Assembly: GCA_038206135.1 (NCBI GenBank)
Contig: JBBRBD010000007.1
Location: forward strand, 1 to 51,706
DNA length: 51,706 nucleotides
Source of the DNA: Patescibacteria group bacterium
GTDB taxonomy: Bacteria; Patescibacteriota; Microgenomatia; UBA8517
Direction: 5' to 3'
This document shows, one piece after another, positions 1,050 through 10,987 of the stretch; the stretch's first letter is position 1; every line of letters starts with the position of its first letter. The position numbers and the translations under genes were made by a program. The notes under the pieces were generated by a model. That model was not told where the DNA came from. It saw only the letters and a program-made list of their open reading frames with translations, and searched no databases.

Positions 1050-1472
1050 TCAAGCTTCGCTTGATACCTGTGACGGTTCACTTTCTTCTTTGGCTGACTT
1101 TGTGGAAGCTACTGTTTCCAGTGCTACCCAACTTAGTTTTGCCATTTCAGCATTGTCACCACGTCGAGTGGGAAGACGAGTAATACTCGTAAATCCACTT
1201 GGGCGAGATTTTGCTAAATCAGTTAGTGTAAAAAGTTTTTCAACTGTTGGTCGATCGTTACGGAGGAAACTTGCAGCATGCCGTCTGGCAGCTAAGTCGC
1301 CTTGTTTAACGTCTAACATCAGTCTATCGAGATCTGCTTGAACCGCTTTGGCTTTCGTCAAAGTTGTGGTCATAAAGCCTTTCTCAATTAAATTTTTAGC
1401 TAAACTTACAAAAAGTGCTTCTCGGCTTTTTCTATTTCTGCCAAGTTGTTTGCCGTAAATTTTGTTACGCAT
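1050..1472 (-). CDS. rplQ: 50S ribosomal protein L17
   Basis: QLGRNRKSR, TTTLTKAK, RPSGFTSI, RRGDNAEM; downstream of rpoA. Confidence 0.95.
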   Translation of the reverse strand: MRNKIYGKQLGRNRKSREALFVSLAKNLIEKGFMTTTLTKAKAVQADLDRLMLDVKQGDLAARRHAASFLRNDRPTVEKLFTLTDLAKSRPSGFTSITRLPTRRGDNAEMAKLSWVALETVASTKSAKEESEPSQVSSEA

Positions 1473-2382
1473 CTTGCAATTTCACTCCTTTCTCTTTGAG
1501 TAAATCGTTAATTACGTCCAAAGATTTTCCGCCAAGGTTTCGTACCTTCATCAGTTCTGGTCGAGGAGCCATTGTAAGCTTCTCAACTGTTTCAAATCCG
1601 GCTTTTGCAAGAGCATTAGATACTCTTGTTGGTAATCCGAGCTCTTCAACAGAAAGCTTTCCAACACTTCCCATAGAACTATCTACTTCAACAACAGCTT
1701 CTACAACTGCTACTGCTTTCGGATGAACAATTTGGTCAAAATAAGAAACGATTGTTGAGGCTGCTTCTTTCAAAGCAACTTCAGGATCAACTGTTCCATT
1801 TGTCCAAATTTCGAGCGTTAATTTATCATAATTGGTTACTCGTCCAACACGAGTTTCTTCAATTTTCGGAGTTACCCGAACAACTGGAGAGAAACTTGCG
1901 TCAAGTGGAATAATTCCAATCTGAGTTTGTTCTCGCTCATCTGCTGGAGCATATCCAACACCAGTTTCAATTGTCAAAGTTGCATTAAGCTTTGCGCCTT
2001 TTGCAAGATTTGCCAAAACGAGTTCTGGGTTTGCAATAACAACACCTGCTGGCAATTCAATGTCTCCGGCTTTCACTTCTCCAGCTTCTTTAGCTTTCAA
2101 AGTAGCAGTAATTGGATCTTGTCCGGTATAGCTCACTGCAACTTTTTTCAAGTTTAAGAGTAAATCGAGAACATCTTCTTGCATACCTGAAAGTGTTGTA
2201 AATTGATGCTTCACACCTTCTATTTCCACAGTTGTGATCGCAGCACCTTTCATGCTGGTTAAGAGCACGCGGCGCAACGCGACGCCCAACGTATGGCCAT
2301 AACCCGCGGCCAATGGGGTAATCACGAACTTACCGTAGGTTTTTTCGTTTTTTTCTGTTTTTAGTTCAAAAATTGGTTCCAT
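1465..2382 (-). CDS. rpoA: RNA polymerase alpha subunit
   Basis: PL..GYGHTLGVALRRVLL, LDASFSPV, alpha-CTD RNLGGKS; start moved to ATG 2382, preceded by AAGGAGGTGA. Confidence 0.98.
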   Translation of the reverse strand: MEPIFELKTEKNEKTYGKFVITPLAAGYGHTLGVALRRVLLTSMKGAAITTVEIEGVKHQFTTLSGMQEDVLDLLLNLKKVAVSYTGQDPITATLKAKEAGEVKAGDIELPAGVVIANPELVLANLAKGAKLNATLTIETGVGYAPADEREQTQIGIIPLDASFSPVVRVTPKIEETRVGRVTNYDKLTLEIWTNGTVDPEVALKEAASTIVSYFDQIVHPKAVAVVEAVVEVDSSMGSVGKLSVEELGLPTRVSNALAKAGFETVEKLTMAPRPELMKVRNLGGKSLDVINDLLKEKGVKLQDA

Positions 2383-2403
2383 ACGTATCACCTCCTTAAA
2401 AAA

Positions 2404-3006
2404 TTATCGTGAGTAAAACTCAACGACTTCCTGATCTTGAAATGGTTCTGGTACATCTTCCCTGTTCGGAAGTTTAACAATCTTGCCTGCTGCTGCTTTT
2501 CGCGTAAGCCATGCAGGAATATTTTCTCTCTCTTGTTTAATATTCATAGAAACGTTTGGCGTGGCCATAGCTTTTGCACCTAATGTAATAACGTCACCTG
2601 CGAGAACTTGGTAAGAAGCAATATTTACTTTCTTTCCATTTACCAAAACATGTCTGTGTCCAACTAATTGTCGAGCTTCAGGTCGTGTGTTTGCAAATCC
2701 TAATCGATAGACCACATTATCGAGTCGTCGCTCTAAAAGAGAAAATACAGCGTTAACAGTGTTCCCTTTTGTTTTCATAGCTTTTTCCATGTAACTTGCA
2801 AATTGCTTTTCAAGTACACCATACATACGTTTTACTTTTTGTTTTTCTCTAAGTTGTTTCCCATACTGAGATGGAGCTCGGCGTGAACCTTTTGGTCCAT
2901 GAACACCTGGAGTTATTGCAAGACGAGTAAGCTTTGCTCCTTTTCCAAAAAGGTCAAAGTTCTCACGTCTACTTAATCTGTCTTTTGGTCCTGTATATCT
3001 TGCCAT
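2404..3006 (-). CDS. rpsD: 30S ribosomal protein S4
   Basis: MARYTGP, QLREKQK, LERRLDNVVYRLG, VEFYSR. Confidence 0.98.
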   Translation of the reverse strand: MARYTGPKDRLSRRENFDLFGKGAKLTRLAITPGVHGPKGSRRAPSQYGKQLREKQKVKRMYGVLEKQFASYMEKAMKTKGNTVNAVFSLLERRLDNVVYRLGFANTRPEARQLVGHRHVLVNGKKVNIASYQVLAGDVITLGAKAMATPNVSMNIKQERENIPAWLTRKAAAGKIVKLPNREDVPEPFQDQEVVEFYSR

Positions 3007-3024
3007 ATTAGTTTTATTTAATTA

Positions 3025-3369
3025 TTAAACTCTTCGTTTCTTCTTTGGTCGCGGCCCATCGTGTGGAATGGGAGTTACATCTGCAATCATAGAGATTTTA
3101 ACACCTGCTGCGCGAATTGCACGAAGAGATGCATCTCGTCCGGGTCCTGGACCTTTAATATAAACTTCTGCTTCAGTTAAATCTTTTGTTTCACGAGCCT
3201 TGTTAACTACTGTTTCAACTGCTGTTGTTGCAGCAAAAGGAGTAGCCTTTCGTGCGCCTTTAAATCCGGAATGACCAGATGAGCCCCATGCAATGGTAGC
3301 ACCTGTTTCATCAGTAACTGTTACCAATGTGTTGTTAAAACTTGCTGAAATAAATATTTTTCCGTTCAT
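3025..3369 (-). CDS. rpsK: 30S ribosomal protein S11 (lacks N-terminal tail)
   Basis: SFNNTLVT, GFKGARKATPFAA, GPGPGR, DVTPIPHDGPRP. Confidence 0.97.
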   Translation of the reverse strand: MNGKIFISASFNNTLVTVTDETGATIAWGSSGHSGFKGARKATPFAATTAVETVVNKARETKDLTEAEVYIKGPGPGRDASLRAIRAAGVKISMIADVTPIPHDGPRPKKKRRV

Positions 3370-4978: not shown

Positions 4979-5293
4979 CTACTCAGTATAGGAGATAGTT
5001 CCAGAACGACCTGGCAAGTAATAGTACCCCTTAACCTTGAGAAGTAGACCTGTTTCCGTTACTTTGTATCCGGTAAAAATCCAACTTTCTCCGCCTCCAT
5101 CTTCTCTACACAGGCTCTCAATTCGTACATTCATCGAGGAATGTATTTTTATCACAGAATCTGAGTTTTTATACTCAAATTTCACCAGCCAACGACTGTT
5201 CATGTCACCATTCATTAGTGAAACCATTAGGTCAAACTTTGAGGGACCTTTGACAATGCGAAACACAAGCGTTGGACCATCTTGTTGTGCCAT
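4979..5293 (-). CDS. Hypothetical protein (104 aa, beta-rich) inserted between adk and map
   Basis: ORF with AAGGAGG SD, own TGnTATAAT promoter (~5382-5390) and own terminator. Confidence 0.75.
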   Translation of the reverse strand: MAQQDGPTLVFRIVKGPSKFDLMVSLMNGDMNSRWLVKFEYKNSDSVIKIHSSMNVRIESLCREDGGGESWIFTGYKVTETGLLLKVKGYYYLPGRSGTISYTE

Positions 5294-5412: not shown

Positions 5413-6039
5413 CTATTGGGGAGTTACATGATCGAGGATGCTTTTATGGATCTCTTCAATACTCTGTGTCCCATCAATTTCAATTAATTTACCCTCTTCT
5501 TTGAGCTTTGTAACCAGTGGCTGTGTGCTTTCGTGGTATGCCTTTAAACGCACCTGAATAGCTTCTGGCTGGTCATCTTCACGATGAATGAGTGTTGAAG
5601 GGTCGACGTCTGCCGGCGGAGGGTTTGTAATAAGATTGTAAATTGTGTCAGTTTTTGGGTCAATTCTTCGGGCTGACAAGCGTTTTACGGTTTCCTCTTC
5701 ATTTATCGTGAGTAAAATCACCTTTTGAACTCCACTTCCTCGAGACTCAAGGAAACTAGTTAAAAGTTGCCACTGAGGAAGGGACCGTGGATACCCATCA
5801 AAGATGATGTTATCGAATTGGTTTTTGGATATAAAAAAGTCTCGAACGATTTTATACATCATGTCATCAGGCAAAAGGACCCCTCGTTTGTTTACAATTT
5901 CGTCTATTTCCGGATTTGTTTTAGAAACTTCACGTAAATGAGACCCTGCGTCAAAGTAAAACATACCAGTTTTTTCTGCCAACATCTCCCCTTGAGTTCC
6001 TTTTCCAGACCCTTGAGGACCAAGTAAAACAATATTCAC
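5413..6039 (-). CDS. adk: Adenylate kinase
   Basis: IVLLGPQGSGKGTQ P-loop, FDGYPRS, RLSARR, REDD; start moved to GTG 6039, just downstream of TGtTATACT. Confidence 0.95.
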   Translation of the reverse strand: MNIVLLGPQGSGKGTQGEMLAEKTGMFYFDAGSHLREVSKTNPEIDEIVNKRGVLLPDDMMYKIVRDFFISKNQFDNIIFDGYPRSLPQWQLLTSFLESRGSGVQKVILLTINEEETVKRLSARRIDPKTDTIYNLITNPPPADVDPSTLIHREDDQPEAIQVRLKAYHESTQPLVTKLKEEGKLIEIDGTQSIEEIHKSILDHVTPQ

Positions 6040-6045
6040 ATAAAA

Positions 6046-6074
6046 AGTATAACAGGAGAGCTCCATGGTATACT
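6046..6074. promoter_or_regulatory. Back-to-back extended -10 promoters (adk on -, GNAT on +)
   Basis: - strand TGTTATACT 6046-6054; + strand TGGTATACT 6066-6074; each 6-8 nt from its start codon. Confidence 0.6.
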
Positions 6075-6082
6075 CGCCGTAG

Positions 6083-6532
6083 ATGCAGTCGGAAATCGTA
6101 ATAACCAATATTACGGACTCAGATGTCGATGAAATAATAAAAATTGGACTTTCTACCCCAGAACTTCAACTGAAAGCAGATGAACCGACATATTATTCGG
6201 AAGAAATGCTTAGTTCATTTATAAAAAGCCCACAGGACATTTATTTAGTTGCAAAAGTAAACGGCAAAATTGCAGGATATAGACTTGCGACCTTCAATCC
6301 ATTTCTTAAAGAAGCTTATTTAATAGACCTGGTCGTGAAATCTGAATATCGAGGACTGGGGGTTGCAACTAAGCTATATGAAAAAACATTTGCAACTTTA
6401 AATACCCGTGACTGTCACCGCGTATGGGTATTGGCAAAAGAAGGAAACATGAAGATACTTCCGTTCCTTTCAAAGTATAACTTCATAAAAGGGGACAACT
6501 TTACTGCATTTTTTAAAACTTCACCATTCTAA
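6083..6532 (+). CDS. GNAT family N-acetyltransferase
   Basis: Motif A LVVKSEYRGLGVATKL; YLVAKVNGKIAGY strand; N...FLSKYNF motif B. Confidence 0.88.
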   Translation: MQSEIVITNITDSDVDEIIKIGLSTPELQLKADEPTYYSEEMLSSFIKSPQDIYLVAKVNGKIAGYRLATFNPFLKEAYLIDLVVKSEYRGLGVATKLYEKTFATLNTRDCHRVWVLAKEGNMKILPFLSKYNFIKGDNFTAFFKTSPF

Positions 6533-6563
6533 AGAATTATAAGCTGTAGTACAATTTCTCATT

Positions 6564-7430
6564 ATGCATTTTATTTACGGAAACTTATTCCATAAAAACA
6601 AAATATCTTTGCTTACCGAAGTTTCTTCAACTGTCGGAATATCGAATGGTACAGATATATCAAAGAAAAAACTTCTTGAGCAATATGAAATATGGAAAAC
6701 TGACTTTGCAAAGTATTTTAATTCACCCGTTACAATAAATCTTATTTTTTACTGGAATAATTGCGCTTATTTGGACATACATGTTCTTGAAACACAAAAC
6801 GAAAGTCATATCTATTCTAAAAAAATAGGCTTGAGCCGTACACTCCAAGATAAATGGGACAAATATCAATTGTCGCTTGAAGCCGCAATGTCAAATGGTG
6901 AAGGTTCTCAAACATTTGAAGCAGGTCATTGGATCTCTCAAAATAAAAACGCGCGCGCTTTTGAAATGGAATTTATAAAAACAGTTGATGACCACTTTGA
7001 TGAACTTGAAGATATATTGAAAAATTCTGATAAATACGAATCTCGCGCCGCTGCAGCGTACCTTTTACATTGGTCTCACCAAAAAGAAAGAGTTTTTGAT
7101 ATTTTAACATTACAACTTGAATACGATCCTGAACATTTGGTGCACAACAATATTGTTAGAGCGCTATCGGCACTATGCCAAATTGTTCAGCTTTCGACAA
7201 TTAATGCAAAAACAATTTTAGATTTAATATTTCACAAGAGCTCACTTTGTATTAACAAGGGACTTATGTTTGTAGTAAATATACATCCACAGCAGCCCGA
7301 TGTGTTCTTGAATCTTCTAAGTAATAAACACTACAGAGATAGAATTGAAATACTAACAAATGCCATTCAACCTCATTTGAGTGAACCTGCTCAGAAAGTA
7401 CTAGAACTAAAAAAGATCGCATATAAATAA
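6564..7430 (+). CDS. HEAT/ARM-like helical repeat protein
   Basis: RAAAAYLL, YDPEHLVHNNIVRAL, INKGL helical-repeat pattern in C-terminal half; TACAAT 8 nt before ATG. Confidence 0.6.
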   Translation: MHFIYGNLFHKNKISLLTEVSSTVGISNGTDISKKKLLEQYEIWKTDFAKYFNSPVTINLIFYWNNCAYLDIHVLETQNESHIYSKKIGLSRTLQDKWDKYQLSLEAAMSNGEGSQTFEAGHWISQNKNARAFEMEFIKTVDDHFDELEDILKNSDKYESRAAAAYLLHWSHQKERVFDILTLQLEYDPEHLVHNNIVRALSALCQIVQLSTINAKTILDLIFHKSSLCINKGLMFVVNIHPQQPDVFLNLLSNKHYRDRIEILTNAIQPHLSEPAQKVLELKKIAYK

Positions 7431-7439
7431 TGCGATCTT
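7413..7439. terminator. Bidirectional terminator-like hairpin between convergent HEAT-like and ATP-grasp genes
   Basis: 10-bp inverted repeat AAGATCGCAT-ataaata-ATGCGATCTT with A-rich 5' and T-rich 3' flanks. Confidence 0.7.
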
Positions 7440-7453
7440 ATTTCATATACTCT

Positions 7454-8416
7454 CTATTCCGTAAGCAATGAGACCATTGCGTTTACCATAGGCTGATCGG
7501 TGGCAAGTTCCAGCCACACCCACTGTCCATTTGGATTGACCTCCAAGAAAACATACTTACCATCGGGTGTAAGAATCAAATCAATTGTCGAAAATTGCAA
7601 TCCAAGCTTCTCAGTAATTTCTAGACATTTGTTCGAAATATCACTTGGAAGTTCAAATGCTTCGTAGCGCAAACCGCTATATATTGCTTGTCGCCAATCA
7701 TTCTTTCCCAATTCGGTCTCTTGCGAGTAAATTGCAGCAGCAAACACCTGATGACCAAATACTGTAACTCGTAGCTCAAGGTCTTTGATTACACACTCTT
7801 GCAGAATAACAGGAGAATACTTTACTCCTTCTAATTGATCAAGAAACTCTGGTCCAAGCTTATTGGTGTATACAGTCTTTCTCTTTCCATCGACTACTAA
7901 ATCAATAAGGTCCAAGGGTTTCATAATGATGTTGCCACAGTGTAAATCGAAAAATGCCTTAGCTTCTATCGGATTGCTCGTAAAAAGGGTGTCAGGTATT
8001 TGAAAACCTAATTCGCGTGCAATATACATGTTGTACCCTTTTTCACGAGCTTTTCTATTCGAGTCCAATGCGTTTACCCATTTAGCATTAGTGCATAAGT
8101 ACCAGAATGTTTTCATTAAGGAAGTTGTCTCTGAGACAACAATTCGAACATGTTGGGTATCCGTTATTGCTGAATCTGGAACAGGATCCAGTGGACGCCT
8201 ATACCATACATGGGTGATTTCCTCCAATGGTAAAAACCGCTGTGCAAGTTGAATATCAGCTTTCACAGCATTTGCATTCATTCTTAAGTTGAAATTGCTA
8301 TCAACAGGAAAAGTTTCGGTGTTAACTCTGTAAAAGATAACACCCCGACGATTTAGTTCCTCAATAACCATATCCGCATGTTCATCATGTTGATTCGTTA
8401 TGATTGCGAGTGACAT
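7454..8416 (-). CDS. ATP-grasp ribosomal peptide maturase (graspetide synthetase, MvdC/MvdD/SAV_5884-like)
   Basis: D.HAD.V, VWYRRP, WVN..A.EK, IPDTL.T, IMKP, P.ILQE..K..ELRVTV, DWR, GL.FSTID, FLEVNPNGQW.WLE; SD AGGGAG. Confidence 0.9.
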   Translation of the reverse strand: MSLAIITNQHDEHADMVIEELNRRGVIFYRVNTETFPVDSNFNLRMNANAVKADIQLAQRFLPLEEITHVWYRRPLDPVPDSAITDTQHVRIVVSETTSLMKTFWYLCTNAKWVNALDSNRKAREKGYNMYIARELGFQIPDTLFTSNPIEAKAFFDLHCGNIIMKPLDLIDLVVDGKRKTVYTNKLGPEFLDQLEGVKYSPVILQECVIKDLELRVTVFGHQVFAAAIYSQETELGKNDWRQAIYSGLRYEAFELPSDISNKCLEITEKLGLQFSTIDLILTPDGKYVFLEVNPNGQWVWLELATDQPMVNAMVSLLTE

Positions 8417-8446
8417 TCAAGATTTCTCCCTATTTGATAATTTACA

Positions 8447-8473
8447 CAAAAAGAGGAAGCCAACGGCTTCCCC
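8447..8473 (-). terminator. Hairpin/terminator between precursor and ATP-grasp ligase
   Basis: - strand GGAAGCC-GTT-GGCTTCC-TCTTTTTG. Confidence 0.7.
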
Positions 8474-8496
8474 AAGTAACAGAAACGATGAATTAA

Positions 8497-8688
8497 CTAA
8501 TCTGGGCCTGAGTCGTCATTTGCACGACCGGGGCAATTTGTTGAGCCACGAGTCGGCGCACGGCGATTCGAATCTGGGCACAGCTGAGCATTGTCATCGT
8601 ATTCACCAAAGGAGTCAGGCACATCGAGTAATTCAGGCATAGGCTCGGTATACAAAACGACCAATGGTGTTGCACTTTGTGTTGGCAT
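8497..8688 (-). CDS. Putative graspetide (ATP-grasp RiPP) precursor peptide, 63 aa
   Basis: AAGGAGG SD 7 nt upstream; directly upstream of the ligase; leader PLVVLY and YDDNAQ; C-terminal T/S...D core TRGSTNCPGRANDDSGPD. Confidence 0.8.
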   Translation of the reverse strand: MPTQSATPLVVLYTEPMPELLDVPDSFGEYDDNAQLCPDSNRRAPTRGSTNCPGRANDDSGPD

Positions 8689-8719
8689 TTTTTTGCCTCC
8701 TTATAACTTGTGCTCACCT

Positions 8720-8747
8720 AGTTTAGCCCAATTAATTTCAAATGCAA
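8720..8747 (-). promoter_or_regulatory. Sigma70-type promoter for the precursor
   Basis: - strand TTGCAT-16 nt-TAAACT, ~30 nt upstream of ATG. Confidence 0.45.
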
Positions 8748-8790: not shown

Positions 8791-10074
8791 CTAATTCAAA
8801 TACTTCTCATACTTGTTCATCACCATTTGAGATTCAATAGTACGAACTAAATCAAGAACAACTGAAACAACGATTAATAGTCCAGTTCCTCCAATTGCCA
8901 AGTTTGTTGTACCAATAGCGTTTTGGAAGAGTGATGGCAAAATTGCAATTGCCCCTAAAAATGCTGCTCCAAACATGGTAATTCTGTTTAAAACAAAGTT
9001 CAGGTACTTTTCGGTATTCTCCCCAGGTCTCACTCCCGGAATGAACCCGCCACTCTTCTTTAAGTTCTCTGCAATTTTTTCTGGATTGAATACGACTGTC
9101 GTATAAAAATAGGTAAAAGCAACAACAAGCAAAAAGTAAAAAATATTATAAACTGCAGACTTTGGGTTAAAAAGCTGAGTTAATGTAACAGCAAAGCTTG
9201 CAAGTTGTGGGTTTCCAGACCCACCTAAGAATTGTGAAATAAGGGTTGGCAACAGAACCAAAGAAACGGCAAAGATAATTGGAATAACTCCAGCTTGATT
9301 TACCCTGAGTGGAATATACGAGCGATCTCCTCCGACAAACTCTTTTGCACGACGAGAATAATGAATTGGAATTTGTCTCATTGCTTCATTTACGAGAACG
9401 ACAAGTGCCATGATAATGACCGCAATTGCCACGAATATAACTATTTTTATAGTGTCCTCAGGTCGAAGCGTTGACAAAGTTTGTCTAAACATTGAAGGAA
9501 AACGAGAAATAATTCCAGCGAAAATCAAAAACGAGACTCCGTTTCCGAGGCCGTATTCAGTAATAAGTTCTCCAAGCCAAACGGTGAATAGTGTACCGGC
9601 TGTCATGGTAATAATAAGGGTGATTAAACCAAGGGGACTTAAGTTAGGTAGTACTCCAGTGTTTTTCAACAGAGCATACATTCCAAATGCCTGAAACACT
9701 GAAAGTGGAAGTGTCAAAAATCGAGTATATTGATTAATTTTTTCTTGTCCGAACTCACCTTCTTTTGAAAGCTCTTCAAGGGAAGGGATCACAAAGGATA
9801 ACAGTTGAATCACAATAGAGGCATTAATATACGGGTTTAAACCAAGTGCAAGAATAGAGAAGTTTGCAAGTGTTCCACCTGAAAAAATATCAAGAAGGGA
9901 GAAGAATGCGTTACCTGACAGAAGTGAACTAAAAGAATCGCGGTTTATTCCAATTGCGGGGATATGTGCTGCAAAACGAAAGACCACCAAGATAGCGGCA
10001 GTTATAAGGAGCTTTTTCCTGACTTCGCGGATTTCAATACTCCGTTTAAAAAACGAAAAAATATCTGTAAACAT
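8791..10074 (-). CDS. secY: Preprotein translocase SecY
   Basis: SILALGLNPYINASIV, GLGNGVS, AGVIPIIFA, FIPGVRPG, GGTGLLIVV. Confidence 0.98.
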   Translation of the reverse strand: MFTDIFSFFKRSIEIREVRKKLLITAAILVVFRFAAHIPAIGINRDSFSSLLSGNAFFSLLDIFSGGTLANFSILALGLNPYINASIVIQLLSFVIPSLEELSKEGEFGQEKINQYTRFLTLPLSVFQAFGMYALLKNTGVLPNLSPLGLITLIITMTAGTLFTVWLGELITEYGLGNGVSFLIFAGIISRFPSMFRQTLSTLRPEDTIKIVIFVAIAVIIMALVVLVNEAMRQIPIHYSRRAKEFVGGDRSYIPLRVNQAGVIPIIFAVSLVLLPTLISQFLGGSGNPQLASFAVTLTQLFNPKSAVYNIFYFLLVVAFTYFYTTVVFNPEKIAENLKKSGGFIPGVRPGENTEKYLNFVLNRITMFGAAFLGAIAILPSLFQNAIGTTNLAIGGTGLLIVVSVVLDLVRTIESQMVMNKYEKYLN

Positions 10075-10077
10075 TAA

Positions 10078-10509
10078 TTAAGCAATTGTACCACCAGCTT
10101 TTTCGATCGAAGCTTTCGCGCTTTCTGAAGCTGCAACAGAAAGAACATACTTTTTTGTGACTTCTCCATTACCCAAAATTTTTGCACCGTTTGCTTTGTA
10201 TTTTCGAGGAATGAATCCATGTTCAATAAGCACTTTCATTGTTACCTCTCCAGCGGGAAGAGTATTCAGTTGTTCAATTGATACAGTAACTGGTTTTGGT
10301 CGAGCTGCATTTCTTTGCTTACCAGGAAGAACAGGTAAACGATGCAATAGAGACTTTTTAGTTTTAACACCTTCAAAAAGTACGTGAACTGTATATCGAG
10401 CTTTTTGACCTTTTTGACCACGGCCTGTTGTGTGGAAACCTTTTCCACTTCCAACACCACGGCCTACACGCTTTTTTGTTTTTTGAACGACTGTTAAATT
10501 GTTATACAT
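10078..10509 (-). CDS. rplO: 50S ribosomal protein L15
   Basis: RVGRGVGSGKG, GRGQKGQKAR, FEG, KILGNG, IEKAGG; start moved to ATG 10509 overlapping the rpsE stop. Confidence 0.95.
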   Translation of the reverse strand: MYNNLTVVQKTKKRVGRGVGSGKGFHTTGRGQKGQKARYTVHVLFEGVKTKKSLLHRLPVLPGKQRNAARPKPVTVSIEQLNTLPAGEVTMKVLIEHGFIPRKYKANGAKILGNGEVTKKYVLSVAASESAKASIEKAGGTIA

Positions 10510-10987
10510 TTTTTTGTCTTCTTTCAACGAGTTGTGTTATCTTTTCTAAAGCTTCAATAGTTGCATAAACGTTACTAATTTTATTGTTTGTTCCCAAACT
10601 TTTTCCAACAGCATCATGAATTCCAGCAAGCTCTAAAACGACTCGTACTGTTCCTCCGGCAATAATACCTGATCCTGGTGGAGCGGGCTTTAACATAACT
10701 TTTGCAGCTCCATATTTAATGTTCACTTCATATGGAATTGTTGTTCCACGTCGGGGTACAACGATCATATGTTTTTTAGCATTAGAAACTGCTTTTTGAA
10801 TCGCACCTCGTACGTCTTTTGCCTTGGCTATAGCCGCTCCAACTTTTCCATTTCGGTCTCCAACTACAACAAGAGCAGAAAACCTCATTTGGTTTCCACC
10901 TTTGGTTTTTTTGGAAACTCGATTAAGTTGTACGACTTTTTCGTCAAACTCTTTTTGATATCCGTCTTGGTATGAATCGTTTCTCAT
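10502..10987 (-). CDS. rpsE: 30S ribosomal protein S5
   Basis: RVSKKTKGG, FSALVVVGD, PAPPGSGIIAGG, KSLGTNN. Confidence 0.97.
   Translation of the reverse strand: MRNDSYQDGYQKEFDEKVVQLNRVSKKTKGGNQMRFSALVVVGDRNGKVGAAIAKAKDVRGAIQKAVSNAKKHMIVVPRRGTTIPYEVNIKYGAAKVMLKPAPPGSGIIAGGTVRVVLELAGIHDAVGKSLGTNNKISNVYATIEALEKITQLVERRQKNV

Follow-up and report, generated by a model that had tools for sequence, protein, structure and literature searches.

A Predicted Graspetide Gene Cluster Between secY and adk in a Patescibacteria Genome

What do four genes lodged between secY and adk make in a bacterium whose whole genome is 1.09 Mb? The window studied here, meaning the entire 51,706-nt stretch of DNA, is contig JBBRBD010000007.1 (C7) of GCA_038206135.1, a 21-contig assembly of a Patescibacteria group bacterium with 100% completeness and 1.72% contamination. 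Between secY and adk it carries a block that encodes a 63-aa peptide, a 320-aa ATP-grasp ligase, a 288-aa HEAT-like protein, and a GNAT acetyltransferase. An earlier model reading of the letters alone (the sequence-only reading) had proposed a graspetide-type locus. We consider the block to be a graspetide (omega-ester peptide) cluster made up of a precursor and a macrocyclase, with the HEAT-like protein as a probable accessory, and from sequence comparison we give this reading a probability of roughly 0.8. Judged by its genes, the locus is a new, divergent member of a graspetide kind already published in 2022 for candidate phyla radiation (CPR) bacteria, with the same speculation about host interaction (PMC8939145, Biol Direct 17:7).

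Results

The ATP-Grasp Ligase

The strings VWYRRP, DWR, and FLEVNPNGQWVWLE, from which the sequence-only reading had proposed a ligase of the MvdC/MvdD/SAV_5884 type, are all in the translation, and hidden Markov model scoring and solved structures agree with the graspetide type. Over its full length, the ligase matched the NCBIfam models TIGR04187 (1.3e-71), TIGR04185 (MvdC; 1.9e-68), and TIGR04184 (MvdD; 1.8e-62), compared with 3e-31 for the grasp-with-spasm model, 5.6e-15 for RimK, and 1.3e-8 for LysX. The MvdD-type pre-ATP-grasp domain PF21068 scored 53.1 bits, over its 27-bit cutoff. All six PDB matches at E ≤ 1e-3 are graspetide macrocyclases: MdnB (5ig8; 7e-46) and MdnC (5ig9; 9e-42), which are the best, followed by AMdnB (7m4s), CdnC (7mgv), the MvdD-like 9bou, and PsnB (7drm). 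The ligase missed the cutoffs of both RimK (55.4 bits against 143.4) and LysX (34.3 against 275.6), and a RimK or LysX identity was rejected on the model scores and the PDB matches. On these comparisons, the 320-aa protein is a divergent graspetide-type macrocyclase that is neither RimK nor an equivalog of MvdC, MvdD, or SAV_5884.

The ligase has the expected residue at 14 of 14 invariant columns of a 35-row family alignment (alignment A2, 35 of 64 ligase open reading frames [ORFs]), among them K166, K211, R216, D240, R242, D279, E292, and N294. We take invariant residues such as K166, K211, D279, E292, and N294 to be those that bind ATP and Mg. The closest relatives anywhere are 31–41% identical. 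We built one tree from 70 of 79 extracted ligases (identical ones removed; matches with <280 aligned residues or ORFs outside 280–380 aa excluded) and another from 46 rows, comprising all CPR and own-genome ligases and 26 chosen others, with L156, a 606-aa fusion, excluded. The branch leading to the window ligase is long, and its grouping with four further CPR ligases and a single ligase from Acidobacteria is weak (SH-aLRT 83, fork drawn open).

The Precursor Peptide

The 63-aa ORF upstream of the ligase (MPTQSATPLVVLYTEPMPELLDVPDSFGEYDDNAQLCPDSNRRAPTRGSTNCPGRANDDSGPD) belongs to no Pfam or NCBIfam family. Its gene has the perfect Shine–Dalgarno (SD) sequence that the sequence-only reading had noticed (Table 1). 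According to the main text of PMC8939145, CPR precursors have the leader motif Phhx(1,2)h among their first 30 residues, and in branch 1 the core follows the signature TxxxTx(6-10)Dx(1-4)D and a canonical GG site is missing. In the 63-aa peptide, the leader motif starts at P8, and the core spans the final 18 residues (Thr46 to Asp63, the C terminus), with Thr or Ser at 46, 49, and 50 and Asp at 58, 59, and 63. The peptide has two Cys (37 and 52) and no Lys, and therefore its predicted rings would be esters only, with no lactam.

We turned the published leader and core motifs, which are independent of this peptide, into regular expressions and ran them on the 5006 ORFs of 40–120 aa in the genome. 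The core signature occurs anywhere in nine of them, and one of the other eight adjoins a paralogous ligase on contig C14. Placed at the C terminus, the signature leaves 2 of 5006, and combined with the leader motif it leaves 1 of 5006, which is the 63-aa ORF. In a MAFFT alignment, the leader Pro with its hydrophobic–aromatic run and a second E-Y-D...L element line up with precursors beside homologous ligases. The proposal that the adjacent ORF is the precursor thus gains from both the published motifs and the leader alignment.

The expectation that similar peptides lie beside homologues of the ligase was also borne out. We compared 94 ligase-homologue loci that offered 400 bp or more of upstream sequence; several are duplicates across collections and thus are not independent counts. 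In 78 of them, a small ORF rich in Thr/Ser and Asp/Glu ends no more than 500 bp away, a tail rule satisfied by 5.3% of the genome's 8707 small ORFs; the other 16 have no recognizable upstream peptide.

We also predicted the complex of ligase and peptide, which scored 0.53 (0.53, 0.57, and 0.53 in separate runs) against 0.00 for the best of three controls, with a partner pLDDT of at least 42 and at least 30% of contacts shared between runs. Of 80 solved complexes, 58 attain the mark that it passed, as do 2 of 110 mismatches; scores of 0.60 or lower came from only 7 of those 80 solved complexes and from both mismatches, and a score like 0.53 errs more often than not unless the pairing was already likely. 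The prediction lends the pairing weak support, and the pass may reflect memorization, as similar complexes have been solved.

Behind the peptide gene lies a G+C-rich hairpin of 9 bp with a T-run (−14.8 kcal/mol, z −3.0, 1 of 200 shuffles as good), which appears to be terminator- or attenuator-like. Between the converging ligase and HEAT genes, a 10-bp palindrome with its T-run on the minus strand (−14.9 kcal/mol, z −3.3, 2 of 200 shuffles as good) overlaps the HEAT gene's final codons. Transcripts of the ribosomal operon may be able to read through into the peptide gene, because the scan found no terminator-like site between secY and the peptide gene. A promoter scan gave 4 sites against 11.4 expected, none of them before the peptide or the GNAT gene.

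The HEAT-Like Protein

The 288-aa protein itself has no Pfam match, and a word-index search returned the query alone. By full HMMER scan, it has 107 relatives at E ≤ 1e-3, and 8 of these reach E ≤ 1e-10. Alignment A1 was made from 50 of the 107 relatives, and when the window protein and 49 relatives in it were scanned, HEAT_2 was present in 38 of the 50. An alignment-based AlphaFold (AF2) model (pLDDT 95.5, pTM 0.91) has an N-terminal alpha/beta domain and a C-terminal solenoid of helical pairs (residues 128–287); it replaced a single-sequence fold that was discarded (pLDDT 46.5). Foldseek returned generic HEAT/ARM proteins only, all weak (best E 7.7e-3, TM ≤ 0.39, none at E ≤ 1e-3), and neighbors in the Atlas are HEAT_2 clusters. 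No enzyme fold was seen among the fold matches of the model. The family members, the solenoid, and the HEAT/ARM matches all fit the sequence-only description of the protein as HEAT-like.

The family is found in 3 of 401 genomes of the phylum sample. In one of these, G206, a homologue that is intact and 27% identical across 288 aa (E 2e-35) converges on the C-terminal remnant of a ligase at a distance of 38 nt, the same geometry as in the window, where the distance is 23 nt. We therefore regard the HEAT-like protein as probably part of the module, an accessory of this ligase lineage. At L091, a metagenome locus whose ligase is the nearest branch to that of the window in one tree, a converging TPR-repeat protein occupies the HEAT position, and TPR proteins occur in CPR branch-1 loci according to the main text of PMC8939145.

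The G206 remnant (L154, G206:C1:283688-287032; 1495-1848, minus strand) comprises the C-terminal 116 residues and is 43% identical to the window ligase; the upstream part of the ligase has been replaced by an unrelated 158-aa ORF without a Pfam family. It could not be established as the closest relative of the window ligase: the 43% identity is limited to the conserved C-terminal part, in which Bacteroidota ligases reach 45–47%, and the tree does not pair the two.

A HEAT-like neighbor goes unmentioned in the main texts of PMC8939145 and PMC13097080, although their supplements may list one, and we found no literature on graspetides together with the term "HEAT repeat." A HEAT-like accessory is possibly a new feature for graspetide loci.

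The GNAT

The sequence-only reading's identification of a GNAT holds: the 149-aa protein is a plain Acetyltransf_1 member (PF00583, 1.5e-14) that scores 38.9 bits with the rimI model against a cutoff of 86.4, and among solved structures it comes closest to YpeA and archaeal N-terminal acetyltransferases (E 4e-5 to 8e-4). It contains the string RGLGVA, which fits the acetyl-CoA loop motif. The sole link between the GNAT and the module is the 31-nt same-strand spacing to the HEAT gene, with which it likely shares an operon; co-occurrence with other graspetide-type ligases was seen in none of the surveyed loci and phylum genomes. Microviridin clusters can optionally include a GNAT that N-acetylates the product (available text of PMC7823629), and the available text of PMC13097080 states that group 7 graspetide clusters often carry an acetyltransferase. 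By analogy, N-acetylation of the product by the GNAT is plausible here.

The secY–adk Junction

All four ORFs interrupting secY–adk were found where the sequence-only reading had placed them, and Pfam confirmed the flanks (Table 1). They fill a gap of ∼2.76 kb (alignment end to alignment start). The precursor ORF, encoded on the ligase strand, stops 80 nt upstream of where the ligase begins, and the adk and GNAT starts diverge, 17–44 nt apart, depending on the adk start (compared with that of a same-genus genome). The G+C content is 0.36 for the GNAT and 0.33 for the HEAT gene against 0.40 for the ligase and 0.39 for the window. No methyltransferase, transporter, or peptidase was found in the block by Pfam and NCBIfam, just as had been claimed.

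Table 1. Features of the secY–adk block and its flanks, in window coordinates
Feature	Coordinates	Strand	Basis
GNAT acetyltransferase, 149 aa	6083-6532	+	ORF; PF00583 1.5e-14
HEAT-like protein, 288 aa	6564-7430	+	ORF; no Pfam match of its own
Graspetide-type ATP-grasp macrocyclase (ligase), 320 aa	7454-8416	-	ORF; TIGR04187 1.3e-71
Predicted graspetide precursor, 63 aa	8497-8688	-	ORF; published leader/core signatures
SD sequence AAGGAGG, 7 nt before the precursor ATG	8696-8702	-	Direct sequence reading
Hairpin and T-run between precursor and ligase	8453-8473	-	Scan and fold
Palindromic hairpin between converging ligase and HEAT genes	7413-7439		Scan and fold
secY, upstream flank	8791-10074	-	PF00344 6.3e-111
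adk, downstream flank, start GTG 6039 or ATG 6066	5413-6066	-	PF00406 1e-27

The junction had been described as normally contiguous, and that is right for most relatives and wrong as an invariant rule. Of the loci from 19 relatives, 15 have secY and adk <100 nt apart; the distance is 383 nt in the same-genus genome G001 and 727 and 1270 nt, respectively, in two more, and one locus has no secY within it. The junction is a recurrent site for small inserts, since the G001 gap (L061, G001:C37, 1118-1500) contains a membrane ORF of 83 aa that has an SD and a terminator of its own. No counterpart of any of the four genes was found at the secY–adk position in relatives. Among 60 other related genomes, ligase-type matches (<1e-20) occur in two (G054 and G001), at other places; the 288-aa protein occurs in none; and the GNAT has a match in one (E ≤ 1e-5), on a contig other than that of adk.

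On the far side of adk, a 104-aa ORF (4979-5293, minus strand) without a Pfam or NCBIfam family lies in a 537-nt gap before map, and no homologue of it was found in the 19 relatives' loci or elsewhere in the genome. In those loci, map follows closely behind adk, unlike here.

The genome is CPR-like, as had been suggested, and the bacterium is probably host-dependent. It is 1.09 Mb at 100% completeness, and the listed genomes of the same phylum are 0.6–1.3 Mb. The S5 gene rpsE is directly followed by rplO (L15), with no L30 gene between them (10078-10987), and L30 had no match in the whole genome in a search whose control detects it in 13 of 14 known genomes. CPR genomes are not known to carry L30.

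In an assembly made independently from the probable source run, two contigs of equal depth (11.1 and 11.4) cover the block, one linking adk, GNAT, HEAT, and the 3′ end of the ligase and the other linking ligase, peptide, and secY. The two overlap by 24 nt (7521-7544), within codons of the most conserved ligase motif, and the ligase reading frame is uninterrupted across the join. A second run of the same study yielded identical pieces of ligase and secY. No contig joining secY to adk without the block was found in the two runs, the uncovered parts of run X2 being uninformative.

Other Ligase Loci in the Genome and Phylum

Graspetide-type ligases (E ≤ 1e-20) occur in 13 of 401 phylum-sample genomes, and only this genome has three matches, each with an upstream peptide (3 of 3). 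The three ligases are mutually 28–30% identical. The one on contig C20 pairs with a ligase of another family, that of G393 (L153), at SH-aLRT 100, and the one on C14 is placed elsewhere in the tree. The C20 and G393 loci share a near-identical Thr/Ser-Glu-rich peptide C terminus, and both have a hydrolase neighbor, so the three ligase loci represent, by tree and neighborhood, separate lineages and not recent copies. Duplication within the genome was ruled out as their source by the low identity and the differing tree positions.

The C14 locus (L002, G000:C14:18180-22130) consists of a peptide (1146-1412, plus strand), a ligase (1498-2463, plus strand), and a converging 227-aa gene (2489-3172, minus strand). 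Its ligase matches TIGR04187 at 1.3e-74, and the ORF upstream has the published core signature. The converging protein has weak Tiki/ChaN-like Pfam matches (3e-3), and neighbors like it lie beside ligases in G156, G419, and a Woesearchaeota contig. The C20 locus (L003, G000:C20:1396-5301) is laid out alike, with a peptide (1240-1437, plus strand), a ligase (1501-2415, plus strand), and a converging 225-aa gene (2450-3127, minus strand), here for an alpha/beta hydrolase. In G001, a graspetide-type ligase (L005, G001:C37:16385-19996) lies ∼6 kb past secY–adk, after rpsI, with an upstream 56-aa peptide and a DUF6624 gene. G001, G206, and G184 share a conserved precursor family beside their ligases (L005 982-1152; L150 1090-1269 and L151 1109-1264, in flipped coordinates), with a Phe-rich leader and a core that has two Cys and several Thr and Asp. 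TPR, Tiki/TraB, alpha/beta hydrolase, and DUF6624 are among the accessory types listed in the available text of PMC8939145 and PMC13097080.

Discussion

The evidence points to a short pathway. The 63-aa gene would be translated from its strong ribosome-binding site, and the N-terminal leader (Pro, then hydrophobic residues and Tyr) would dock on the ligase. Using ATP, the ligase would activate the side-chain carboxylates of Asp58, Asp59, or Asp63, and each activated Asp would be closed onto the hydroxyl of Thr46, Ser49, or Thr50, giving one to three lactone rings. The hairpin with its T-run behind the peptide gene may hold enzyme levels below those of the precursor. The converging HEAT-like protein is probably an accessory that accompanies the ligase (partner, scaffold, or self-protection), and the GNAT may acetylate the product or may be a passenger. 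Leader binding, ring chemistry, leader removal, export, and biological role are all inferred.

Several results weigh against this reading. The block has no peptidase or exporter, and no C39 peptidase domain was found in the genome (the control detects one in 7 of 14 genomes), so leader removal and release are unexplained. No full-length homologue of the peptide was found, the best tblastn match being at E 0.01, to a precursor beside a homologous ligase (L128). The ligase scores under every graspetide cutoff (241.4 bits against 350, 230.9 against 425, and 211.4 against 475), which is why we call it a divergent member, and the trees are poorly resolved around it. As for the accessories, GNAT and HEAT genes lie beside none of the 96 ligase-homologue loci fetched first; the HEAT copy in G228 is interrupted by a stop codon, and no ligase lies within 1.5 kb of it; and the four relatives of the GNAT among 400 phylum genomes (E ≤ 1e-8; identity ≤30%) are in genomes without the ligase or the HEAT family.

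Four other explanations were weighed. The GNAT and HEAT genes could be unrelated arrivals in a variable secY–adk gap, with precursor and ligase forming the whole cluster. Their absence from the other ligase loci, the ligase-free genomes of the GNAT relatives, their G+C content below that of the ligase and the window, their place on the opposite strand, and the readiness of the junction to accept other inserts, such as the membrane ORF of G001, would all follow, and groups 27, 28, and 35 consist of a synthetase and a precursor only in the available text of PMC13097080. Against this stand the G206 homologue in the same converging position beside a ligase remnant, the fact that two of three HEAT copies lie by a ligase when ligases occur in just 13 of 401 genomes, and the converging TPR-repeat protein at L091, of a type known from CPR branch-1 loci (main text of PMC8939145). 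We judge that both genes are unrelated arrivals to be somewhat unlikely. That the ligase is real and the 63-aa ORF is not its substrate, or not a gene, is a quite improbable account, under which the true precursor lies elsewhere or the locus is decaying. It would explain why the peptide lacks a full-length homologue; 16 of 94 ligase loci have no recognizable upstream peptide either, as is also described for branch 2 in the main text of PMC8939145, and ligases do decay, as the G206 remnant illustrates. Yet an intact ORF with a strong SD lies beside an intact ligase, both published motifs are correctly placed as in no other of the 5006 ORFs, the leader aligns with other precursors, and the complex prediction, weakly, points the same way.

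We give hardly any credence to a RimK- or LysX-like enzyme that modifies a ribosomal or other protein, for which the 63-aa ORF would be irrelevant. Such a role would suit a ligase gene that sits among ribosomal-protein genes, matches RimK and LysX weakly, and falls under the graspetide cutoffs, but the fit to the graspetide models is better by ∼55 orders of magnitude, an MvdD-type pre-ATP-grasp domain is present, and every PDB match is a peptide macrocyclase. Moreover, the gene was not found at the secY–adk position in relatives, and the same genome has separate RimK-like genes on C8. Equally far-fetched is an assembly chimera in which the four genes lie between secY and adk in no cell. The break of the independent contigs inside the most conserved ligase motif and the 1.72% contamination would allow for one, but each contig ties insert genes to a conserved flank at equal depth, the ligase frame stays open across the join and matches homologues along its whole length, the second run has identical ligase and secY pieces, and G206 has the same ligase–HEAT arrangement.

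The graspetide reading, by contrast, places the locus among known systems. The sequence-only reading had taken the gene set to be unrecognized, a view that does not stand beside the CPR clusters of PMC8939145 and the optional GNAT of microviridin clusters (PMC7823629), as described in the available text of each. With branches 1 and 2 of the CPR clusters, the locus shares a small-genome CPR host, one ATP-grasp ligase, and a short upstream precursor, as well as the leader motif, the branch-1 core signature, and the lack of a canonical GG site. The helical-repeat (TPR), Tiki/TraB-like, and alpha/beta-hydrolase accessories of those clusters resemble what we found at the genome's other two loci and in relatives. 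In contrast to the clusters as the main text presents them, the window peptide has no detectable full-length homologue, the accessories are a HEAT-like protein and a GNAT ("HEAT" occurs 0 times in that text), and the locus lies within a ribosomal-protein operon.

Microviridin clusters (MdnA-E/MvdA-E) include the best solved relatives of the window ligase, MdnB and MdnC, and have a leader motif of the PFFARFL kind. A GNAT, optional there according to the available text of PMC7823629, is also present here and may be unrelated to MdnD/MvdB. Unlike these group 1 clusters, the block has one ligase instead of two, no Lys for a lactam, and no ABC transporter, and its ligase stays under the MvdC and MvdD equivalog cutoffs. 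Multicore loci of Bacteroidota and Acidobacteriota, which are probably the thuringinin-related "cluster 13" of PMC8939145, have ligases 31–37% identical to that of the window over the full length, and their precursors share the Pro-hydrophobic-aromatic and E-Y-D...L leader elements. Those precursors are 110–140 aa long with three or four repeated cores, whereas the window peptide has a single C-terminal core, and they are followed by an ∼250-aa membrane-like protein. For the HEAT-like protein, one possible role has a precedent in the rosaritide pair MirB/MirC, in which a nonenzymatic neighbor can be needed for synthetase activity and stability (available text of PMC13097080); MirC is a chaperone-domain (PPIase-like) protein, and here the candidate partner is a HEAT-like protein.

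A role of the product as a protease inhibitor or in host interaction is speculation by analogy, since it is drawn from other graspetides and from PMC8939145, whose main text states that the functions of CPR graspetide clusters remain to be elucidated. In the literature on CPR graspetides, we found no bench-characterized example. A bolder version, in which the HEAT-like protein is a dedicated partner of a CPR graspetide-synthetase lineage and acts with the GNAT to give an N-acetylated, ester-bridged peptide, expressed from the ribosomal operon and aimed at proteases at the interface of the episymbiont with its host or competitors, we consider unlikely. If it were true, the locus would define a new accessory family for graspetide biosynthesis, and a 1.09-Mb genome with three graspetide lineages would be that of a specialist producer.

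The locus is a compact, complete-looking case of ∼2.7 kb, with a 63-aa peptide, one ligase, and two candidate accessories, that could be expressed in E. coli. Its site in a ribosomal-protein operon is unusual, and the repeated ligase–HEAT arrangement offers a concrete candidate for a new accessory protein. That three ligase lineages are kept in a 1.09-Mb genome suggests that the peptides are important to a bacterium that has very few genes for biosynthesis.

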